Positions 54,001 to 60,000 of a DNA stretch of 64,000 nt are shown here, piece by piece. Where the stretch lies: contig CAVQMO010000003.1 of NCBI GenBank assembly GCA_963713605.1, forward strand, positions 32,001 to 96,000, given 5' to 3'. How positions within the stretch are numbered: the first letter of the stretch is position 1; each line of letters starts with the position of its first letter. The DNA is from an uncultured Nitrososphaerales archaeon (GTDB taxonomy: Archaea; Thermoproteota; Nitrososphaeria; Nitrososphaerales; Nitrososphaeraceae). A program made the position numbers.

Positions 54001-57000
54001 TTCTCTGAGTAAAGCCTTTAACAGAAAGCTCTTTTACTTTATCGCGTCGCCATTGAATTCTCTGTTCACTTTTTGCGCTCAAATGTTCACCTCCTATCTA
54101 TTAATAATAATATTCACTTCGACTTAGCCGTTTTTCGGTTTGAATGTAAAAGCAGTCATAGCTGGTAAGAATTGCAACCTACAACAGTACCCTCCCTACT
54201 TTTTAGGGTAGGGCCGGCATGCATTCTGCTAGGGACGTGAAAGAATGAGCTATACTGTCAGGATTGAACATAATCACATACCATGAATCTTCGGTTCCGA
54301 ATTTTTCCTCTACGTATACCTGCAACATGTACGGTCCAGCGTAAGACATGAAGTATGCCCCTCCTACGACCCGTTCTCCGTCAAGGCAATCCGCAATTGA
54401 GGACCCAATGGTGTGGGGAGTTACAGAGACAGTTGGACCATTTCTTTCAATGACGGATGGAATGATTGAGCCGCTAGCTATCTTTGCAGTTGTAACAGCA
54501 CCATCAGCTATCTTTGGAGTTGTTATAGCATTATTTGCTATTGCATTCGTTCCAATTTGCTGTATCAAATATCCGGTAGATTGTGTTGGTCCGTCTATCA
54601 CGGCATTAGCAGCATTTCTAGTCGATACAGTAACATGGTACGCATTATTTGGAGTTATTGGGTTTACAATATTTGCGAACTCTAACCTTATCTTTGTCCC
54701 TACAGGTACGTTTACGGCATTGGTTATTGTATACGTTAAGGTTTGACCGGATTTACTTGTACGTACCTGTTAGTATGGTACAGTTACCGCCTGGCACGCA
54801 TTTCTCCGCCTCATTAAAACTAGCACTAGATGGTTACTGGTACCAGGTGGAAAAGTTACTTCTATTTTTTTGATTGTCCCAGTTGTAGCTGTCAGAAAAA
54901 CAACATCATAGAATGCTTTTCTGTTAACTATGTCATTTGTAGGTCTTGCACTGAGCGAGCCAATAGCTGCTTGAGTAGTAAAATCGCCATCTTTTCCCTC
55001 TTGGCTGATTGTCGAAGGTGCTGACGGGACTGTGCTGATGGTGGGCAAAGGTGAAGAAGAAACCGAATCTGTTCTCGCCATAGTTGTTGGGTTAGTAAAA
55101 ACAACCGTGGATGATATCATCATAAGCGGAATAATCAATATTAAGCCAAGCCTGCTGAATGACTCTCGTGTTATCATGTATGTAGCAAAGATTTGACAAA
55201 TCCATCTTATCTGCGGTTAGAGACTCTTGTTACCCATATTAGTCATAGATTTCGTCTTGAACATTCAATGTATCCATTGATATATACTATTTAGACTAAT
55301 GCCAGAACTGCAATAACAACCTTAAAGCCTCAGATAAGACATCTCAATATTGCAGATCAACTATATTCATGACGTCCGCTAATCTGCTATATCCTAAAGT
55401 TATCTAATATGTCAGTAGTCAGGCGATATTCACTGAATCTATGATGATGCATATCAGATATTGAAGAAGTGAAATATTTAAGGGATATTCGGACTCTTCA
55501 GTTTCTACTTCCTGTGCTATCATCGCAAGAGTCTTGTGATTGTTGATGATAGATTGTTCTTGAATGAAAGTCATGGGAGTCATGTTTAGAAAGTGATTTG
55601 ACTTGTGGGTTTTGGTATTCCCTGGCTGCAAGACAAACACTTTTTTTAATTTGCGTTTTTCTTCCTTTGCTTAATTTTCCGCTCGATTGATTGGACAATA
55701 TACAAGTTCCTGAACTACATTCTCAGGCGACAGTTCCTACCATCTGAGGATGAAGGGTACAGTGATAGGGGAACGTACCATACTGAACAAAGTTAAGAGT
55801 GAACGTGGCACCAGGACTTAAGATATTCGAATCAAAGACTTGTCCTGATCGTGCTGTCCCTGTGACAGTATGAATCTGGGTATCATAGTTGATCCATGTT
55901 ATTCCCGTCAGTATATTCACATATATCGGATTTGGTTGAAAGGCCTGATTACCTCTAGTTGCTGCGTTTGGCACAATTGATACTGGAATGGTCGGAGGCA
56001 TTAAAGTGAATGGTTGTTGTGGTATCGGTGGTGGTAGTGGTTGTTGTTGCAATGAAGGTGGTAGTGGTTGTTGTTGCAATGAAGGTGGTAGTGGTTGTTG
56101 TTGCAATGAAGGTGGTAGTGGTTGTTGTTGCAATGAAGGTGGTGATTGCAAAGGCGTTTGTGGTTGCTGCTGCAATGCAGTACTAGGTATCTCTACAGTA
56201 GTTCCATTTGCACTAGTACCATTAGTGCCATTGGTAGCCTGCATAGTCTGATTATCTGATGTACCGTTTGTTTGGTTGGAGACTGCACTATCACTAGATG
56301 TCGCATTAACTTCCTGAGGCTCGTCCTGAGTTTGGTTTATTACGTTGAGAAGACTGCTATTACTGCTTATTTGCTCCTGAGACGGTTGTAGAGTAGAGTT
56401 ACTTAGTTGCGCCAATGTGTATTTAATAATGGATAGTGGAATAGAGTCCGATTTGGTTGATTGAATGGTCGCTAAATAAACAAGAATACCCAGTATTACT
56501 ACTATCGTCATAGTAGTTTGATTCAAACTAAAATGTCCTGTACAGAGAAATATATAAGGTTTCTAGGCTGGATTAGGTATCCTGGTGGGTGTATTCGCAT
56601 TACTGGCCTGCAATAGTATTTGAAGAGTCTGCTAGTTCTTTGCTCAGCCTTGAATAACAATTCAGAAATTAGGCCTGCGGCCTTTGCAGTTTTTAGTTTA
56701 AAATCGTCATCGACTGTTACTATAACCTCTAGCCTTTCTTTAACCTCGTTATTCTTATCTTCTATTGTTTGTAGCTCTTTAGTACGTTCAAGCTCTTGCT
56801 CTATTACTTCCTTTGCGCCTTCCAGTAATTTATCAAGATGATCATTGATAGGTTTCAGTAATTTAACTTTTAATAGTTCGAGTTCTGTTATTGCATCCCT
56901 TACTTCTTGAGGATAAAACTCATCATTGTCTGGAATTGTTACAACTTCGTTTAGGTTGAATCCATCAGGAGAGAATTCCGGCAATTGCATCTGATGTAAA

Positions 57001-60000
57001 AGATATTCCCAGAATCCTTCACCACCAACCTTTTCTACAATGCTATCTAATTCTATACGGTGATCCTTCAGGTATTCGTCTGTAATTTGTGTGCCTGGTG
57101 GGGGTAGGTATTCTTCCTCAACGTCTTCCTCTTCTATATCAAACCCATTTTCCTGTAACCACTTTACCGTGTCTCTAGTAATGCCTATCCTTGGAGTTGG
57201 TGTCCTTGTCTCGTTGGATATATCGATACCAATACCGTCATAGTCGGTTAATGTCCAAACAATTGAACCTATCTTCTTTATCTCTTCTATTAGATCTTTA
57301 CCATATTCGGTAAGCCTTCCCTGTGTGTGGACCAATGCAATATGGTATTCTTGCGCAAAAGAGGCTAAGACGTCCGCTATTCCTTCTTTCTCGATTACAA
57401 GTATTGCAATCCCTTTATCTGCAAGTTGTTTAACATTGTCTATATCCACGGGATATGATTGACCATTGTAAAGCATAGTAGCCCTTGCAGACGCAACAAT
57501 TCCAAGTTGTTCTCTCGTTATGTTTTCGTCAGGCCATAATTCCTGACATGTCTTCATAATACTATTTTGTAGAGTTGATCTAGTGGTCCCCCAGTCCTTT
57601 GGAGGCTCAAATTTGTCCTCTATCATGATACGTCTAACGCGATAAAAAACACCTGATTGAGTAAGTCGATCGCCGGATCTTAATGATGGATCTGCTTCGA
57701 CTTTTTTGCGCCTATCTCGTAGGAAGTTTCTAAGATAGTCTATAGCTACTTTTCTTTCTTCATCTGGCTCACTCTTACTACTCTTACCGACGCCATAGCC
57801 GTGAAATGTCGGTATTTTTCCCATAACTTTACTTATGGTTTCTGCAATGGTACTTGCAAATGGATCTATTACGAGTGTTGATTTACCTTGGTCTCGCCAT
57901 TGTACCTTTGGAGTTAAAAGATTGGATACGATAACACATGGATGCGTTTTACTCGAGTCCCTTACACTATAGCCATACCAATAATCTAGAATGCCAGTCA
58001 TATTCCAGGCTTGGCAATCTTTGCCTTTCTTCCTAAAAGTGTAATACCCGTCGTAGAGACTCATACCTTTGTTGACTATGCTAACTGAATTATTAATAGC
58101 ACCGATGAATGTTGGACGGTTACTCCATATATCACTAAATGGTATAACCATGACCTCAAACACATATGGAAAATTTACTTTCCCATCTTCGGATATATGT
58201 CTAGAATGCGTAATTTTGTATTCTGCTTTATTTATTGGTTTGACTGGATATGTTGTTGCTATTCTCTTAAACAATGCGTCCTTCCTTAACTCGTCACTCT
58301 CCTTATCGCCCCCATATGGGTACTGAAAGGTTCTTCTTCGGTCTGCTGTGTTCCTTTAACTCTGTTAGTAGGCCCGTCTTTTCGATTGTAGATAATTCAT
58401 TTAGTTTCTTCTGTGTCCACTCCTTAGGTAACCATTTTAATTCTCTAAACCCTGTTAAAGCTGTAGAAACAAAGATAGACTGATCTGCGAGATTCTCGAT
58501 AAAGATTAGGAATTCATTGTCCGTATAGGCCCAGGCGGTGACCTCGTTCGTCCATGTATTTGATGCAATTGCATTGCTTGGAGTATTGATCTTCTCACCA
58601 TTGAAATCAAAGAAAAATCTGATGTGCGTAGAAAATAGCGAATAATTCAAACAATATTCTTTTAATTCATCTACGAGGTCAGTACCTTAGCCCATCTTTT
58701 GGAACCGAGATACTAACTTCCGTATAGGGTGCCTGATTTTGGGGTCTTGGCTCGGTATCTATTACCGCTTCCAGTTTGCTAGCAATAAATTTGCTAGTAT
58801 CGAGTGATATCTTGGATCGTTGTTTATTGTATGTAATTGTGAGTGGAGCGAGCTATCCCGTTGAAAACATGTCCCTTCTCATAAAGCATTGCATAAGGAA
58901 TTGATAATTTGGGTTTAGTTGCATCCCCTATTGCACCACGACCTATCCTAAATTTATTTTTCTTTGTACTTGTAAAGTATTCATAATTAACAATGTCACA
59001 GAGGTTTGTCTGAAGTGCAGTAGGATTATTATTTGGATTTGAATTTCTTACTGTAAAAATAAGGTCGGTGTCGTTTGTTTGAACAAATACACTGACTGTT
59101 CGCATATCACTGGCATTCAAGTACGTATTCTCAAGATAATCCGTCGCGTTATCCAGATCTTCCTTGGCAATGTAAAAATGGAAATGTGATGAAAAGGTGC
59201 CTATGTGTTCAGTCAAACCCTTAAGAGTCATATACCTTGACCAGCTCTGGCTTGACCTTGAAACTAGATCTTTCATGGTTAGACGGGCATATGCATTTTT
59301 TGACGATTTCTAATGTCTTATCGACAAGTCGATCCTTACGAAATTCTTTCAGTATCGATGTCTTTATCTCCAAGTTTTACGATAAAGATATCAGTAGTAT
59401 GTACGCTAGGCATAAGGGATAACTTCTCCTCCTCCCTGGATGAAACTGTCGTAGACGAGACGTTCCTCGTTCAGGTAGCAGTGCTGATATTGATATAGAT
59501 TAGTCCAGCTACTATGAAAGCAAGTTTGCAAAGGACGTGGATGTGGTTGATTGGTCTCTACGACATCCAACTCCCCTTTCGTCACAGTCATTGCTCCTTC
59601 TCGATCCAAATTCTGCTACCTTCTTGCTTTACTCGGACATAGTCGCCCTTTCCTATCCCCAAGTCTAGGGCATATGACTTAGGAAGGATGATCGACAGTG
59701 AGTTTTCGCCGACTATACCCTGGACTTTTCTTATTGAATATGGATTACTCATAACTATCGATAAATTCATATTCTATGAAAGAACTATGGGGTTGACACC
59801 GTTCGTGCCTCGCTTAAAAAGTTGTCTGGGATGCCCTAAATGTAATCAACAGGGAAGAACGATAGGAAAAAGGCCAGTGAAGAATCGTGTCCAGTTGCCT
59901 AACAAAGACACCATTATGAATCTCGAACCTATAGATCATAGGAAGGGAAATGGATGGCTTGTCAAGATGAAACTCTCTGCCGCTTTCGACTTCGGCAGCT

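Follow-up and report, generated by a model that had tools for sequence, protein, structure and literature searches.

A probable type IIB DNA topoisomerase from an undescribed Topo VIII-related lineage on a 33-kb integrative element of a soil ammonia-oxidising archaeon

Introduction

Topoisomerase VIII (Topo VIII) is a type IIB enzyme described from bacteria and Euryarchaeota (Gadelle 2014; Takahashi 2020). Its members are encoded as one chain or by two adjacent genes split in the B half, are carried on mobile elements, and combine a GHKL domain, an H2TH domain and a transducer with an N-terminally truncated 5Y-CAP and a Toprim domain. In the GxxGxA group, which includes the Halalkalicoccus jeotgali enzyme, the G2 box reads GxxGxA, a switch lysine is present, and the catalytic tyrosine is preceded by an aromatic residue and followed at Tyr+3 by an Arg, often with a Pro after it; an E...DxDxxG signature, a T2BI box of the form R-[VI]-E-[LI]-[ND]-[AS] and a C-terminal extension complete the cleavage half. 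Related systems are the archaeal A2B2 enzyme Topo VI, the Mini-A proteins of phages and proviruses, and eukaryotic Spo11 with TOPOVIBL. Topo VI, Mini-A and 77 of 82 Topo VIII share a conserved Arg at Tyr-4 (PMC7671362).

Here, we analysed a stretch of 64,000 nucleotides (the window) from a soil Nitrososphaeraceae ammonia oxidiser, which carries a topoisomerase gene on an integrated mobile element. Positions count along the window, in which position 1 is position 32,001 of contig CAVQMO010000003.1. The sequence and the structure model indicate that this gene, on a 33-kb integrative element, probably codes for a type IIB DNA topoisomerase from a Topo VIII-related lineage that had not been described. 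The family shares with Topo VIII, and especially with its GxxGxA group, the features listed above.

Results

Gene locus and frame breaks

The gene and its three frame breaks are located as follows.

56523..59276, minus strand: whole gene, Topo VIII-like type IIB topoisomerase; four in-line pieces matching P0003 residues 1-834 at 73-84% identity
58850..58850, minus strand: frameshift 1, extra C between GCT and GCT, frame 0 to 1
58685..58686, minus strand: frameshift 2, frame 1 to 2; GG at a point that the relative P0010 (95% identical) reads through as though with a single G
58318..58320, minus strand: frameshift 3, frame 2 to 0; CCC at a point that P0010 reads through as though one base shorter

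Four open pieces in frames 0, 1, 2 and 0 occupy the minus strand from 59309 to 56526, with ORFs at 58824-59276 (150 aa), 58303-58650 (115 aa) and 56523-58274 (583 aa), and no in-frame stops were found in the gene pieces. A tblastn search was performed with the 882-aa ortholog P0003, named at NCBI as a Nitrososphaeraceae archaeon hypothetical protein. Its residues 1-122 matched 59216-58851 (83.6%), residues 119-178 matched 58861-58682 (73.3%), residues 179-302 matched 58680-58309 (81.5%) and residues 299-834 matched 58319-56709 (76.9%), which reproduces the four pieces of the initial annotation. A whole-genome search recovered the same pieces and added a match to a paralog on contig C10 (26% over residues 502-875). 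When read through the three single-base insertions, 56523..59276 (minus strand) yields a product of ~900 aa, and intact orthologs measure 882-903 aa. The last 60 codons differ from the orthologs, the tblastn match stopping at 56709.

The three frameshifts annotated initially are present in the assembly but probably absent from the organism. The chromosomal top6B of the same genome lies in three frames, with two breaks in the same direction as those of the topoisomerase gene, and base 58850 is missing from an otherwise identical 338-nt metagenome contig of run X2, a check that covers site 1 of the three. ORFs of at least 150 aa, moreover, cover only 49% of the genome. Errors of sequencing or assembly are thus a likelier source of the breaks than decay of the gene, which is therefore probably intact in the organism.

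Domain organisation and structure model

The predicted domains and motifs, including all those named in the initial annotation, were assigned coordinates.

58540..59216, minus strand: Bergerat-fold (GHKL) ATPase domain, P0003 residues 1-225; borders approximate, converted from tblastn
59139-59162, minus strand: N-box EDLDNATD, in the GHKL domain
59031-59051, minus strand: G1-equivalent VRNSNPN, in the GHKL domain
58920-58937, minus strand: G2 box GAIGDA, in the GHKL domain
57760..58539, minus strand: H2TH-like small helical domain plus transducer, approximately residues 226-485 of P0003, from model secondary structure and the Topo VI-B match (model 1-471/501)
57876-57893, minus strand: candidate switch lysine, within DQGKST; in the alignment with H. 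jeotgali Topo VIII, DKGKQ stands opposite DQGKS
56976..57752, minus strand: 5Y-CAP and Toprim cleavage module, from the 1d3y_B match and motifs
57630-57671, minus strand: catalytic-Tyr motif DRLTQSGVFYRVRR, containing FYRVRR; Tyr codon 57642-57644
57381-57395, minus strand: Toprim IEKEG, in the cleavage module
57228-57245, minus strand: Toprim DYDGIG, in the cleavage module
57039-57059, minus strand: T2BI box RIELDSI, in the cleavage module
56526..56975, minus strand: C-terminal helical extension, long helices 769-860 in the model

The AF2 model, obtained from an alignment of 89 sequences, reached a pLDDT of 81.1, compared with 67.5 initially. A VIA comparison with the PDB matched model residues 1-471 to Topo VI-B 2zbk_B (Z 20.9, rmsd 5.7, 396 aligned; initially Z 12.3-11.8) and residues 487-747 to Topo VI-A 1d3y_B (Z 16.1, rmsd 3.5, 230 aligned; initially Z 13.4-12.8), while MutL 1nhj gave Z 17.3. 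The best Foldseek PDB matches of the model were Topo VI-B chains (E 2e-17); PDB searches with the single sequence and with a HMMER profile gave no significant match. The fold and its structural matches are now stronger than in the initial annotation. The folds and the set of catalytic residues match those of Topo VI, from which the new protein differs in its fused halves and in its T2BI and G1 motifs. A chromosomal Topo VI is also encoded in this genome, on contig C1.

Invariant in 16 of 16 long forms were E19, N23, D26, G94, G97, A99 and Q442-G443-K444 in the B half, as well as Y524, R527, E608, D657, D659, G662, R719 and E721 in the A half. The same catalytic motifs were kept across 38 diverse cluster representatives, and most separate B genes also retained the N-box Glu/Asn/Asp, the G2 box and the switch lysine.

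In GyrB and Hsp90, ATP binding is lost when the adenine-binding Asp of the G1 box is changed to Asn. The degenerate G1 box (RNSNP) that had been noted in this gene was found family-wide: N-x-N replaces the DxGxG of Topo VIII, with Asp changed to Asn and both glycines changed, in 37 of 37 sequences covering the site. Because of this replacement, the sequences predict a base pocket unlike that of every studied GHKL topoisomerase. Pfam HATPase_c matched none of the 16 long forms, whereas it was present in 35 of the 41 proteins that a search with H. jeotgali Topo VIII retrieved (query included).

Kinship to Topo VIII

A tblastn search of 72,556 plasmids returned a sole match, Halalkalicoccus jeotgali plasmid 5 (E 1e-6), whose protein is listed as Topo VIII in a published supplement (PMC7671362). 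BLASTP to this enzyme gave E 1e-17, collinear over 6-683, and an hhalign comparison between 16 long forms of the family and 14 proteins of the H. jeotgali type showed homology over the full length (probability 99.94%, E 1.8e-36, 694 columns). With the family HMM, H. jeotgali Topo VIII scored 77.8 bits, against 23.9 for the best Topo VI-A and no more than 17.3 for Mini-A. The predicted one-chain B+A architecture, which joins a Topo VI-B/MutL-type GHKL and transducer with 5Y-CAP and Toprim, and the kinship to Topo VIII, both proposed initially, are supported because the structure, the homology to the H. jeotgali sequence and the profile-profile comparison point to them.

The marks of Topo VIII given in PMC7671362 were taken as criteria. 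The G2 GxxGxA, Arg at Tyr+3, EKEG, a DxDxxG lacking Pro and a T2BI box R-[IV]-E-[LI]-[DN]-S were all present, and Pro followed the Tyr+3 Arg in most split forms of the new family. Differences from Topo VIII were a Ser in place of Arg at Tyr-4, a conserved D-R/W-T-Q-S upstream, and a T2BI box ending in D-S-[IV] rather than N-A-[MF].

In both trees, which are quick trees, the new family formed its own clade (SH-aLRT 100 and 99) on a long stem (1.3-1.7), outside a Topo VIII and Mini-A group that is itself weakly supported (80 and 83). In an AU test, for which the grouping was chosen after the tree had been seen, a clade of the family with 11 H. jeotgali-type rows (p 0.29) or with all 21 Topo VIII rows (p 0.46) was unrejected. 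As a clade of its own whose place within Topo VIII could not be demonstrated, the family agrees with the earlier caution that it may be a new subfamily rather than Topo VIII proper.

Family forms and the C10 paralog

Most relatives consist of two genes split after the Bergerat fold, and this dominance of split forms is a further difference from Topo VIII. Some members are split at the Topo VI position, the B-long forms ending at profile position about 525. Stand-alone CAP+Toprim forms, some of them fragments, made up 53 of the best 150 representatives, and relatives with these two domains alone commonly measure 350-470 aa. The family is sporadic (6 of 201 genomes of the order), and the hosts named so far are Nitrososphaerales.

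The 381-aa C10 paralog is likewise CAP + Toprim only, with no GHKL partner found in this genome. It had been called Mini-A-like, which is correct for its architecture but not for its lineage, as the trees group it in the new clade, apart from seven phage Mini-A rows. Its DFDPSG has the Pro typical of Mini-A and Topo VI, whereas its RIEIDKV and T-A-Q-G-V-W-Y differ from the xWELDAL T2BI box and the R-Q-L-Y-Y of Mini-A.

The integrated element

The initial annotation had placed the gene in a mobile element without defined borders. The borders and further features were identified as follows.

30305..30319, plus strand: attL, left 15-bp direct repeat CTTATTGGAACCTAA, coinciding with the 3' end of ORF 29996-30319 and including its stop codon
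63418..63432, plus strand: attR, right copy of the 15-bp direct repeat, a perfect match to the left copy
30320..63417, no strand: integrated element, 33.1 kb, missing at the same site in same-genus genome G066
61276..62457, minus strand: tyrosine integrase, Pfam Phage_integrase E 4e-11, PHROG integrase E 4e-14
30368..31162, plus strand: integrase remnant just inside attL, 84-aa and 162-aa ORFs, PHROG integrase E 2.7e-5 for 30674-31159
59588..59770, minus strand: gene for a small AbrB/MazE-type DNA-binding protein, Pfam MazE_antitoxin E 7.5e-5, below the curated cut-off

The repeat occurs nowhere else in the window at up to 2 mismatches. The empty site was observed at locus L060 of G066, in which sequence from window position 63418 onward directly adjoins that from 30319 downward; the 15 nt at the junction match either flank. 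Between the topoisomerase gene and attR lies the integrase, 2 kb upstream of the former and 1 kb from the latter; loci L050 and L054 carry homologous integrases 2-3.5 kb upstream of split topoisomerase genes. The AbrB/MazE-type gene is directly upstream of the topoisomerase gene. The island also has CitMHS and FUSC gene pieces. No replication gene was recognised among the island genes, and a role in element replication therefore lacks local support.

Discussion

Proposed mechanism

The single chain combines a GHKL nucleotide-binding domain and an H2TH-like helical domain with a transducer that carries the switch lysine. To these it adds a truncated 5Y-CAP bearing the catalytic tyrosine, the Toprim metal site and a long tail of helices. 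By analogy with Topo VI and Topo VIII, we infer that two chains would pair at the CAP/Toprim gate, where each tyrosine would cut one strand, with Mg2+ bound by the Toprim Glu and DxD. A second duplex would be captured when the two GHKL domains close, driven by nucleotide, and the transducer would couple this closure to gate opening. As an outcome, element DNA may be relaxed or decatenated during replication or after excision.

Alternative interpretations

The protein might instead belong to Topo VIII proper as a divergent form that branched off from the archaeal GxxGxA group of the H. jeotgali enzyme, with no separate subfamily. The family HMM scores H. jeotgali-type proteins highest (30-96 bits), the two share GxxGxA, the Tyr+3 Arg-Pro and an RVE[LI]NA-like T2BI box, and the AU test left both joint clades standing. 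We nevertheless consider this placement rather unlikely, given the well-supported separate clade, the Tyr-4 position without Arg and the G1 box, which reads DxGxG, as D[DN]G.G, in 36 of 40 H. jeotgali relatives and in 0 of 37 sequences of the new family; the AU grouping, moreover, was picked post hoc, on quick trees. It is improbable, to a slightly greater degree, that the enzyme breaks or nicks DNA rather than passing strands, for use by the element in recombination, replication initiation or conflict with other elements. Such a function would resemble Spo11 with its degenerate TOPOVIBL, a type IIB scaffold with a degenerate nucleotide-binding box that may offer a parallel for a cleavage-biased enzyme. 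It would fit the family-wide G1 degeneration, the many stand-alone CAP+Toprim forms and the C10 paralog without a GHKL partner, the GxxGxA Topo VIII of Ammonifex degensii, which linearised plasmids without religation (PMC7671362), and the degenerate ATP boxes of eukaryotic Topo VI-like B subunits (PMC7671362). However, the N-box and G2 box are degenerate in TOPOVIBL (PMC7671362), which was compared by description only, whereas in the new family they and the switch lysine are invariant in all long forms, which would not be expected after a loss of nucleotide binding and hydrolysis; conservation also extends to the T2BI box and the entire transducer.

Equally doubtful is that this copy is a decaying pseudogene on an old, degraded island, its breaks real and the gene functionless here. 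Three breaks fall within 550 nt, the tail past 56709 is divergent, P0010 is broken too (it seems to share break 1 and has one more of its own), and other fragments occur in the island, namely the integrase remnant and the CitMHS and FUSC pieces. Yet one break is missing from the otherwise identical contig, the essential top6B has two breaks in the same direction, ORFs of at least 150 aa cover 48% of the island and only 49% of the genome, all pieces are free of in-frame stops and 73-84% identical to intact orthologs, and both 15-bp repeats are perfect. A defence or anti-plasmid nuclease, in which a GHKL ATPase is fused to a JetD-like CAP/Toprim nuclease, is very improbable. Weak Pfam DUF2399/JetD matches occur on the Toprim part (E 1e-3 to 3e-5), PADLOC reported JetD (E 4e-4) for one of three family cleavage-module proteins scanned, and a NACHT-pentapeptide protein adjoins the split genes in L052. 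These JetD matches, however, are limited to ~70 residues of Toprim, a true Topo VIII (P0135) shows the same kind of weak match, PADLOC gave no matches for P0003, P0043 and the B genes, and conservation extends to the transducer, to the T2BI box and to the catalytic Tyr, whose surroundings are of the Topo VIII type.

Conclusion

As that of a probable type IIB topoisomerase on an integrative element of a Nitrososphaeraceae archaeon, the gene would belong to a large, so far undescribed branch of Topo VIII-related enzymes with a predicted altered nucleotide-binding pocket.

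The Topo VIII-like gene and its frame breaks

The initial annotation had placed a frame-broken Topo VIII-like gene at 56523-59276, and the comparison with an intact relative confirmed it. The 882-aa ortholog P0003, which carries the NCBI name of hypothetical protein (Nitrososphaeraceae archaeon) and supplies the residue numbers used here, matched the window by tblastn in four in-line pieces with identities of 73.3-83.6%. The same four-piece picture was obtained from a whole-genome search with P0003.

Table. tblastn matches of P0003 in the window (coordinates, strand, P0003 residues, identity)
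59216-58851, minus, residues 1-122, 83.6%
58861-58682, minus, residues 119-178, 73.3%
58680-58309, minus, residues 179-302, 81.5%
58319-56709, minus, residues 299-834, 76.9%

Four open pieces run from 59309 to 56526 on the minus strand in frames 0, 1, 2 and 0. The ORFs listed at the locus are 58824-59276, 58303-58650 and 56523-58274, and the short middle piece is unlisted. The gene start MKDLVSRSSQSW at 59276 agrees with the longest orthologs.

Table. Frame breaks, each of one surplus base relative to the orthologs
58850, minus, break 1, extra C between GCT and GCT
58685/58686, minus, break 2, second G
58318-58320, minus, break 3, third C

In P0010, a 429-aa protein from a relative with 95% identity, the frame stays open across breaks 2 and 3; the protein begins in the shifted frame, immediately upstream of break 1, and terminates at a break peculiar to it. 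The contigs of four public sequencing runs were compared with the window; they cover the smaller part of the gene and, of the three sites, only the first: a 338-nt contig of run X2 covers 58821-59159 and differs solely by one letter fewer at 58850. At most 25% of the sampled words were found in any one public run, and the runs listed as containing them include no RNA run. Programmed frameshifting, considered on the grounds that all three shifts go the same way, was rejected because sites 2 and 3 are open in P0010, the X2 contig has no surplus base at site 1, and top6B on the chromosome is broken in the same manner.

The breaks may be genuine, in a gene that is decaying in the organism. The state of top6B points instead to the assembly. 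This gene (contig C1:500162-502068) lies in three successive frames (500162-500635, 500580-501347 and 501223-502068), its two breaks go in the same direction as those of the topoisomerase gene, and an intact top6A (395 aa) lies directly downstream. The frameshifted top6B indicates insertion errors of the assembly, and since Topo VI is, to our knowledge, the cell's only type II topoisomerase, the topoisomerase gene of the window is probably intact in the organism, with the balance clearly on that side. The assembly as a whole looks error-prone, given the frameshifted top6B, the low cover by ORFs of at least 150 aa (49% for the genome, 48% for the island described below) and a genome that is 87% 'complete' although it consists of just 15 contigs.

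Domain architecture and predicted structure

The B modules (GHKL, H2TH and transducer) and the A modules (5Y-CAP and Toprim) are joined in one chain, which is the architecture of Topo VIII, an enzyme that also occurs as two neighbouring genes divided inside the B half. An AlphaFold2 model of P0003, built from 89 sequences, reached a pLDDT of 81.1, and its best PDB matches by Foldseek were Topo VI-B chains (E 2e-17). The match to the Topo VI-A chain 1d3y_B sets in at residue 71 of the chain and 487 of the model, immediately after the transducer, so that the CAP is truncated. By sequence, neither P0003 alone nor the 89-sequence profile gave a significant match in the PDB, 1d3y appearing at E 1.3 on the Toprim part. 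A complex prediction with two copies of residues 484-770 and the family alignment scored 0.28 and 0.12 against a mark of 0.42, which is neutral either way.

Table. VIA-align matches of the P0003 model
2zbk_B, Topo VI-B, Z 20.9, rmsd 5.7, 396 aligned, model 1-471
1nhj, MutL, Z 17.3
1d3y_B, Topo VI-A, Z 16.1, rmsd 3.5, 230 aligned, model 487-747, chain 71-367

Conserved motifs and size of the family

A word-index search with a 610-aa C-terminal piece as query found 164 relatives, whose lengths were bimodal (~600-700 aa and ~850-950 aa); the short forms all start at P0003 residue ~226. A profile search of 1.84 billion cluster representatives gave 1014 matches up to E 1e-3, 595 up to 1e-10 and 243 up to 1e-30, and the weaker of these matches will include other type IIB enzymes.

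The catalytic set is invariant in 16 long forms. In the ATPase, this applies to the ExxxNxxD N-box (E19, N23 and D26; EDLDNATD at 59139-59162 in the window), to G94, G97 and A99 of the GxxGxA form of the G2 box (GAIGDA in the window) and to Q442-G443-K444, the candidate switch lysine, which aligns to DKGKQ of the published Topo VIII of Halalkalicoccus jeotgali plasmid 5. The G1 site of the window gene is VRNSNPN, with R57-N58-S59-N60 invariant in place of the DxGxG of Topo VIII. Around the catalytic tyrosine, D515-R516, Q519, Y524 and R527 are invariant; an aromatic residue stands at -1, serine at -4 and a conserved arginine at -8. The Rxx[YF], RxxM or Hxx[YF] that precedes this tyrosine in Topo VIII (59, 18 and 5 of 82 sequences, respectively, in the sections consulted of PMC7671362) is absent. 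The arginine at Tyr+3 of Topo VIII, to which a proline is often attached there, is present, as YRVRR in the window gene and YRIRP in most split forms. The Toprim glutamate and DxDxxG are likewise found (E608, K609, E610, D657, D659 and G662; IEKEG and DYDGIG in the window), as are R719, E721 and S724. The T2BI box, RIELDSI or RIEINSV, is identical or conservative at four of seven positions to RVELNAM of Topo VIII, and is nearer to it than to xWELDAL of Mini-A or [RK]xExx[AS] of Topo VI.

A survey of 38 diverse cluster representatives of the Topo VIII-like family showed that KELxDNAxDF, RGxLGDAxK, the conserved lysine, TQSxV[FWY]Y..R, EKEG, DxDxxG and [KR][IV]E[IL][DN][SA][VI] are kept. All 37 sequences that cover the G1 site carry N-x-N, as N-[STPCN]-N, and none has DxGxG.

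For the three window pieces and 20 family proteins, Toprim-type Pfam matches stayed below threshold with two exceptions: DUF2399, found at E 0.1 or better in 10 of the 20 and above the cut-off in P0106 alone, and PF21180, above the cut-off in one of the 20. HATPase_c was found in none of the 20. NCBIfam and PADLOC gave no match for P0003, P0043 or the separate B genes, and tblastn of P0003 against 50,697 phage records gave none. Three split-form A proteins outside the window (P0047, P0109 and P0117) bear an additional C-terminal helix-hairpin-helix (Pfam HHH_5, E 1e-5 to 8e-8).

Relation to Topo VIII, Topo VI and Mini-A

The family is homologous to Topo VIII. When P0003 was searched by tblastn against 72,556 plasmids, the one record matched was H. 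jeotgali B3 plasmid 5 (E 1e-6), and the supplement of PMC7671362 includes its gene (906 aa) among the Topo VIII of the GxxGxA type. BLASTP between the two proteins (E 1e-17) was collinear over residues 6-683 and 21-711, and paired the N-box, the G2 box, DQGKS/DKGKQ, FYRVRR/YYKFRP, IEKEG/IEKTG and DYDATG/DLDIAG (P0003/H. jeotgali enzyme). An hhalign comparison of the 16 long forms with 14 H. jeotgali-type proteins gave 99.94% and E 1.8e-36 over 694 columns, aligning N58 with the G1 aspartate.

Table. Scores of the family HMM
H. jeotgali enzyme, 77.8 bits
Metagenome relatives of the H. jeotgali enzyme, up to 96 bits; 31 of 40 at 40 bits or more
Synechococcus plasmid Topo VIII, 37.8 bits
Paenibacillus pPPM1a, 27.3 bits
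Best Topo VI-A, 23.9 bits
Mini-A, 17.3 bits or less

The differences are firm. The G1 motif DxGxG, as D[DN]G.G, occurs in 36 of 40 H. jeotgali relatives, in contrast to 0 of 37 in the Topo VIII-like family; HATPase_c was detected in 35 of the 41 proteins listed in the H. jeotgali search, query included, but in none of the 16 long forms; and Tyr-4 is serine in the family, whereas it is arginine in Topo VI, Mini-A and most Topo VIII. Topo VI has a separate A protein with a full 5Y-CAP and a B protein with a canonical G1, whereas the window gene has a fused chain, a truncated CAP and N-x-N; with the Topo VI-A rows in a clade of their own at 100, it falls outside Topo VI.

All statements on phylogeny rest on two quick IQ-TREE trees of the CAP+Toprim module (LG+C20), with SH-aLRT as the only support. 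The first was built from 71 rows, after removal of the Topo VI-A row L021 as a wrongly picked ORF. For the second, of 61 rows and 313 columns, the family was reduced from 31 rows to 21 and Topo VI-A from 30 to 12, and 16 relatives of Topo VIII, H. jeotgali-type or more distant, were added.

Table. SH-aLRT support (first tree, second tree)
Topo VIII-like family, 100, 99
Topo VI-A, 100, 100
Mini-A, 100, 100
Topo VIII, one clade at 85, two clades at 98 and 97
Topo VIII + Mini-A, 80, 83

In AU tests, a single clade of the Topo VIII-like family and all Topo VIII stayed unrejected (p 0.46), as did one of the family and 11 H. jeotgali-type rows, a group picked after the tree was seen (p 0.29). The family is therefore distinct, and may be sister to Topo VIII or nested within it.

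Fused and split forms

The best 150 representatives of the profile search were classified by architecture. Six of the 18 forms without an A module are 'B-long' and end at profile position ~525, which is the split point of Topo VI.

Table. Architectures among the best 150 representatives
CAP+Toprim only (some fragments), 53
Fused, 28
Transducer+CAP+Toprim, 27
N-terminal part without A module, 18
Transducer only or fragments, 10
A module after a long unmatched N-terminal part, 3
Intermediate or unclassified, 11

A scan with one genome per species and a 12-row alignment found ten related loci, all in MAGs of Nitrososphaeraceae, Nitrososphaerales or Thermoproteota. In seven of them, an ORF of ~280-320 aa lies directly upstream, abutting or overlapping the start of the short form, and is a full-length match to an HMM built on residues 1-225 of the long forms (E 1e-13 to 1e-24). 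One of the remaining three begins 332 nt away from the end of its contig; at the other two no such ORF is present. The short forms are therefore the downstream gene of an enzyme encoded in two parts, with the division after the Bergerat fold. VRNSN and the G2 box are retained in the separate B genes, and in two of the seven the N-box glutamate is replaced by glutamine. Within the family, fused and split forms are intermixed in the CAP+Toprim tree, so that fusion or fission has occurred repeatedly. At one locus, the split topoisomerase genes are followed, 1.5 kb downstream, by a 1124-aa NACHT and pentapeptide-repeat protein (L052:8448-11819).

The 381-aa paralog on contig C10 (C10:15096-16238) consists of CAP+Toprim and a helical tail only, with the motifs STAQGVWYLIEP, IEKDG, DFDPSG and RIEIDKV. 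It had been described as Mini-A-like, and this holds for its CAP+Toprim-only form; as to membership, its T2BI box is RIEIDKV in place of xWELDAL, and it groups inside the Topo VIII-like family (SH-aLRT 99 and 93), beside the P0054/62/94 clade, and outside the Mini-A clade. Family HMMs found no GHKL or transducer partner for it in the genome. Two integrase pieces and a weak match to the terminase large subunit (E 2e-4) are among its neighbours.

The mobile element

The gene had also been assigned to a mobile element, and an empty site now delimits that element. In G066, a genome of the same genus, a single contig joins window 63418 onward directly to 30319 and below, and the 15 nt where they meet are compatible with either side. 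This empty site and the 15-bp repeats define an island of 33.1 kb at 30320-63417, so that the gene lies in an integrated element; Topo VIII is likewise encoded by plasmids or integrated elements. The repeat was found through the relative's empty site, 15 bp being below the 18-nt minimum of the repeat search, and has only two matches in the window at up to two mismatches.

Features of the island and its flanks
30305-30319, left copy of the 15-bp direct repeat CTTATTGGAACCTAA, perfect
63418-63432, right copy of the same repeat, perfect
61276-62457, tyrosine integrase
30368-31162, integrase remnant just inside attL (84-aa and 162-aa ORFs), resembling a second tyrosine integrase of which a broken N-terminal half is left, and reading inward

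The left repeat forms the end of an ORF (29996-30319), stop codon included. A tRNA scan of the window found none, and the island thus has no tRNA target. Insertion at the 3' end of a gene is of the same kind as in the 14 thaumarchaeal elements that integrate into protein-coding genes, as described in the sections consulted of PMC6563490. The island holds many unknown genes, and no capsid, terminase or replication gene was recognised in it. In view of the integrase remnant, the island may be composite, or contain a relic of an earlier element.

At two related loci (L050 and L054), the split topoisomerase genes have an integrase homologous to that of the window (25-28% identical) at a distance of 2-3.5 kb on their upstream side, and at another (L058) these genes are in a small island without an integrase. 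Across the order, a match at E 1e-10 or better was found in 6 of 201 genomes, namely the present genome, which carries archaeal amoA, four of 40 others of its family and one of 40 of one other family. The distribution of the topoisomerase is patchy and element-like. None of these conclusions draws on G073, a genome marked as unpublished.

Several further features of the island were observed. Paralogous gene and intergenic cassettes with 74-95% identical DNA, the products of which have no Pfam match, recur every 4-6 kb (35076-35610, 41123-41736, 46900-47237 and 51023-51146; also 40902-41126 against 55180-55416). Directly downstream of the topoisomerase, 55723-56526 encodes a secreted cupredoxin-like protein, in which a 27-nt unit (PPSLQQQPL) occurs four times in tandem at 56011-56145. 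In runs X1, X2 and X8, contigs match from 56400 to ~56625-56643 and then diverge, which indicates that the upstream region of the cupredoxin-like gene occurs in other contexts. Two adjacent ORFs at 47359-49061 (315 and 265 aa) are made of 105-108-nt periodic repeats and have no family match. Between the integrase and the topoisomerase, a divergently transcribed gene (60034-61161) encodes a 375-aa Cys-rich protein with CxxC pairs; Pfam, PHROGs, PADLOC and NCBIfam contain nothing that matches it, and BLAST gave no relative among the neighbours of the seven related loci compared. Between the integrase and attR, 62760-63210 and 62512-62757 are multi-copy and overlap a 66-aa coiled-coil-like ORF (62750-62950); dozens of copies, 66-93% identical, occur in this genome (C3, C4, C11, C12 and C15) and in same-genus genomes.

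Possible mechanism and implications

The architecture, the invariant catalytic residues and the homology are established here, and the type IIB mechanism is inferred from Topo VI and Topo VIII: two chains of the enzyme would form the DNA gate, cleavage would be carried out by the tyrosine and Toprim-Mg2+, and a nucleotide-driven closure of the GHKL clamp would be relayed by the transducer. A D-to-N change at the G1 aspartate abolishes ATP binding in GyrB and Hsp90. In the light of this, a different nucleotide may be used, or the domain may have turned regulatory. The N-box, the G2 box and the candidate switch lysine are kept though G1 is N-x-N, which argues that nucleotide handling persists with an altered base pocket. 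The main functional rival is a cleavage-biased, Spo11-like role.

Fused chains, chains split after the Bergerat fold, chains split at the Topo VI position and bare A modules all occur within one clade. We tentatively read the invariant N-x-N, which stands alongside the catalytic glutamate, Mg-binding asparagine, phosphate loop and candidate switch lysine, as a replacement of the universal DxGxG adenine pocket that suggests changed nucleotide specificity or new cleavage gating, and these four architectures as a natural series for the movement of the type IIB B/A junction, a reading to which we give somewhat less than even weight.

The sections consulted of PMC7671362 report Topo VIII from bacteria and four Euryarchaeota only, with no Nitroso- or Thaumarch- entry in one supplementary file, and those of PMC8185306 give 82 sequences, with three bacterial enzymes tested and no archaeal one characterised. 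In the parts consulted of the open-access literature (PMC8185306, PMC6563490, PMC11302465 and PMC9665070), a type IIB topoisomerase on a thaumarchaeal element is unreported; as far as these parts go, Krupovic et al. 2019 (PMC6563490) describe thaumarchaeal elements with type IA topoisomerases only and found no signature gene for the 'cryptic integrated elements'. The Topo VIII-like family is large, with its 243 representatives at E 1e-30 or better, and adds elements of the Nitrososphaerales to the range of type IIB enzymes. The family provides a natural test of the role of the G1 box in a GHKL topoisomerase, and a class of thaumarchaeal 'cryptic integrated elements' gains a marker gene and an attachment site.
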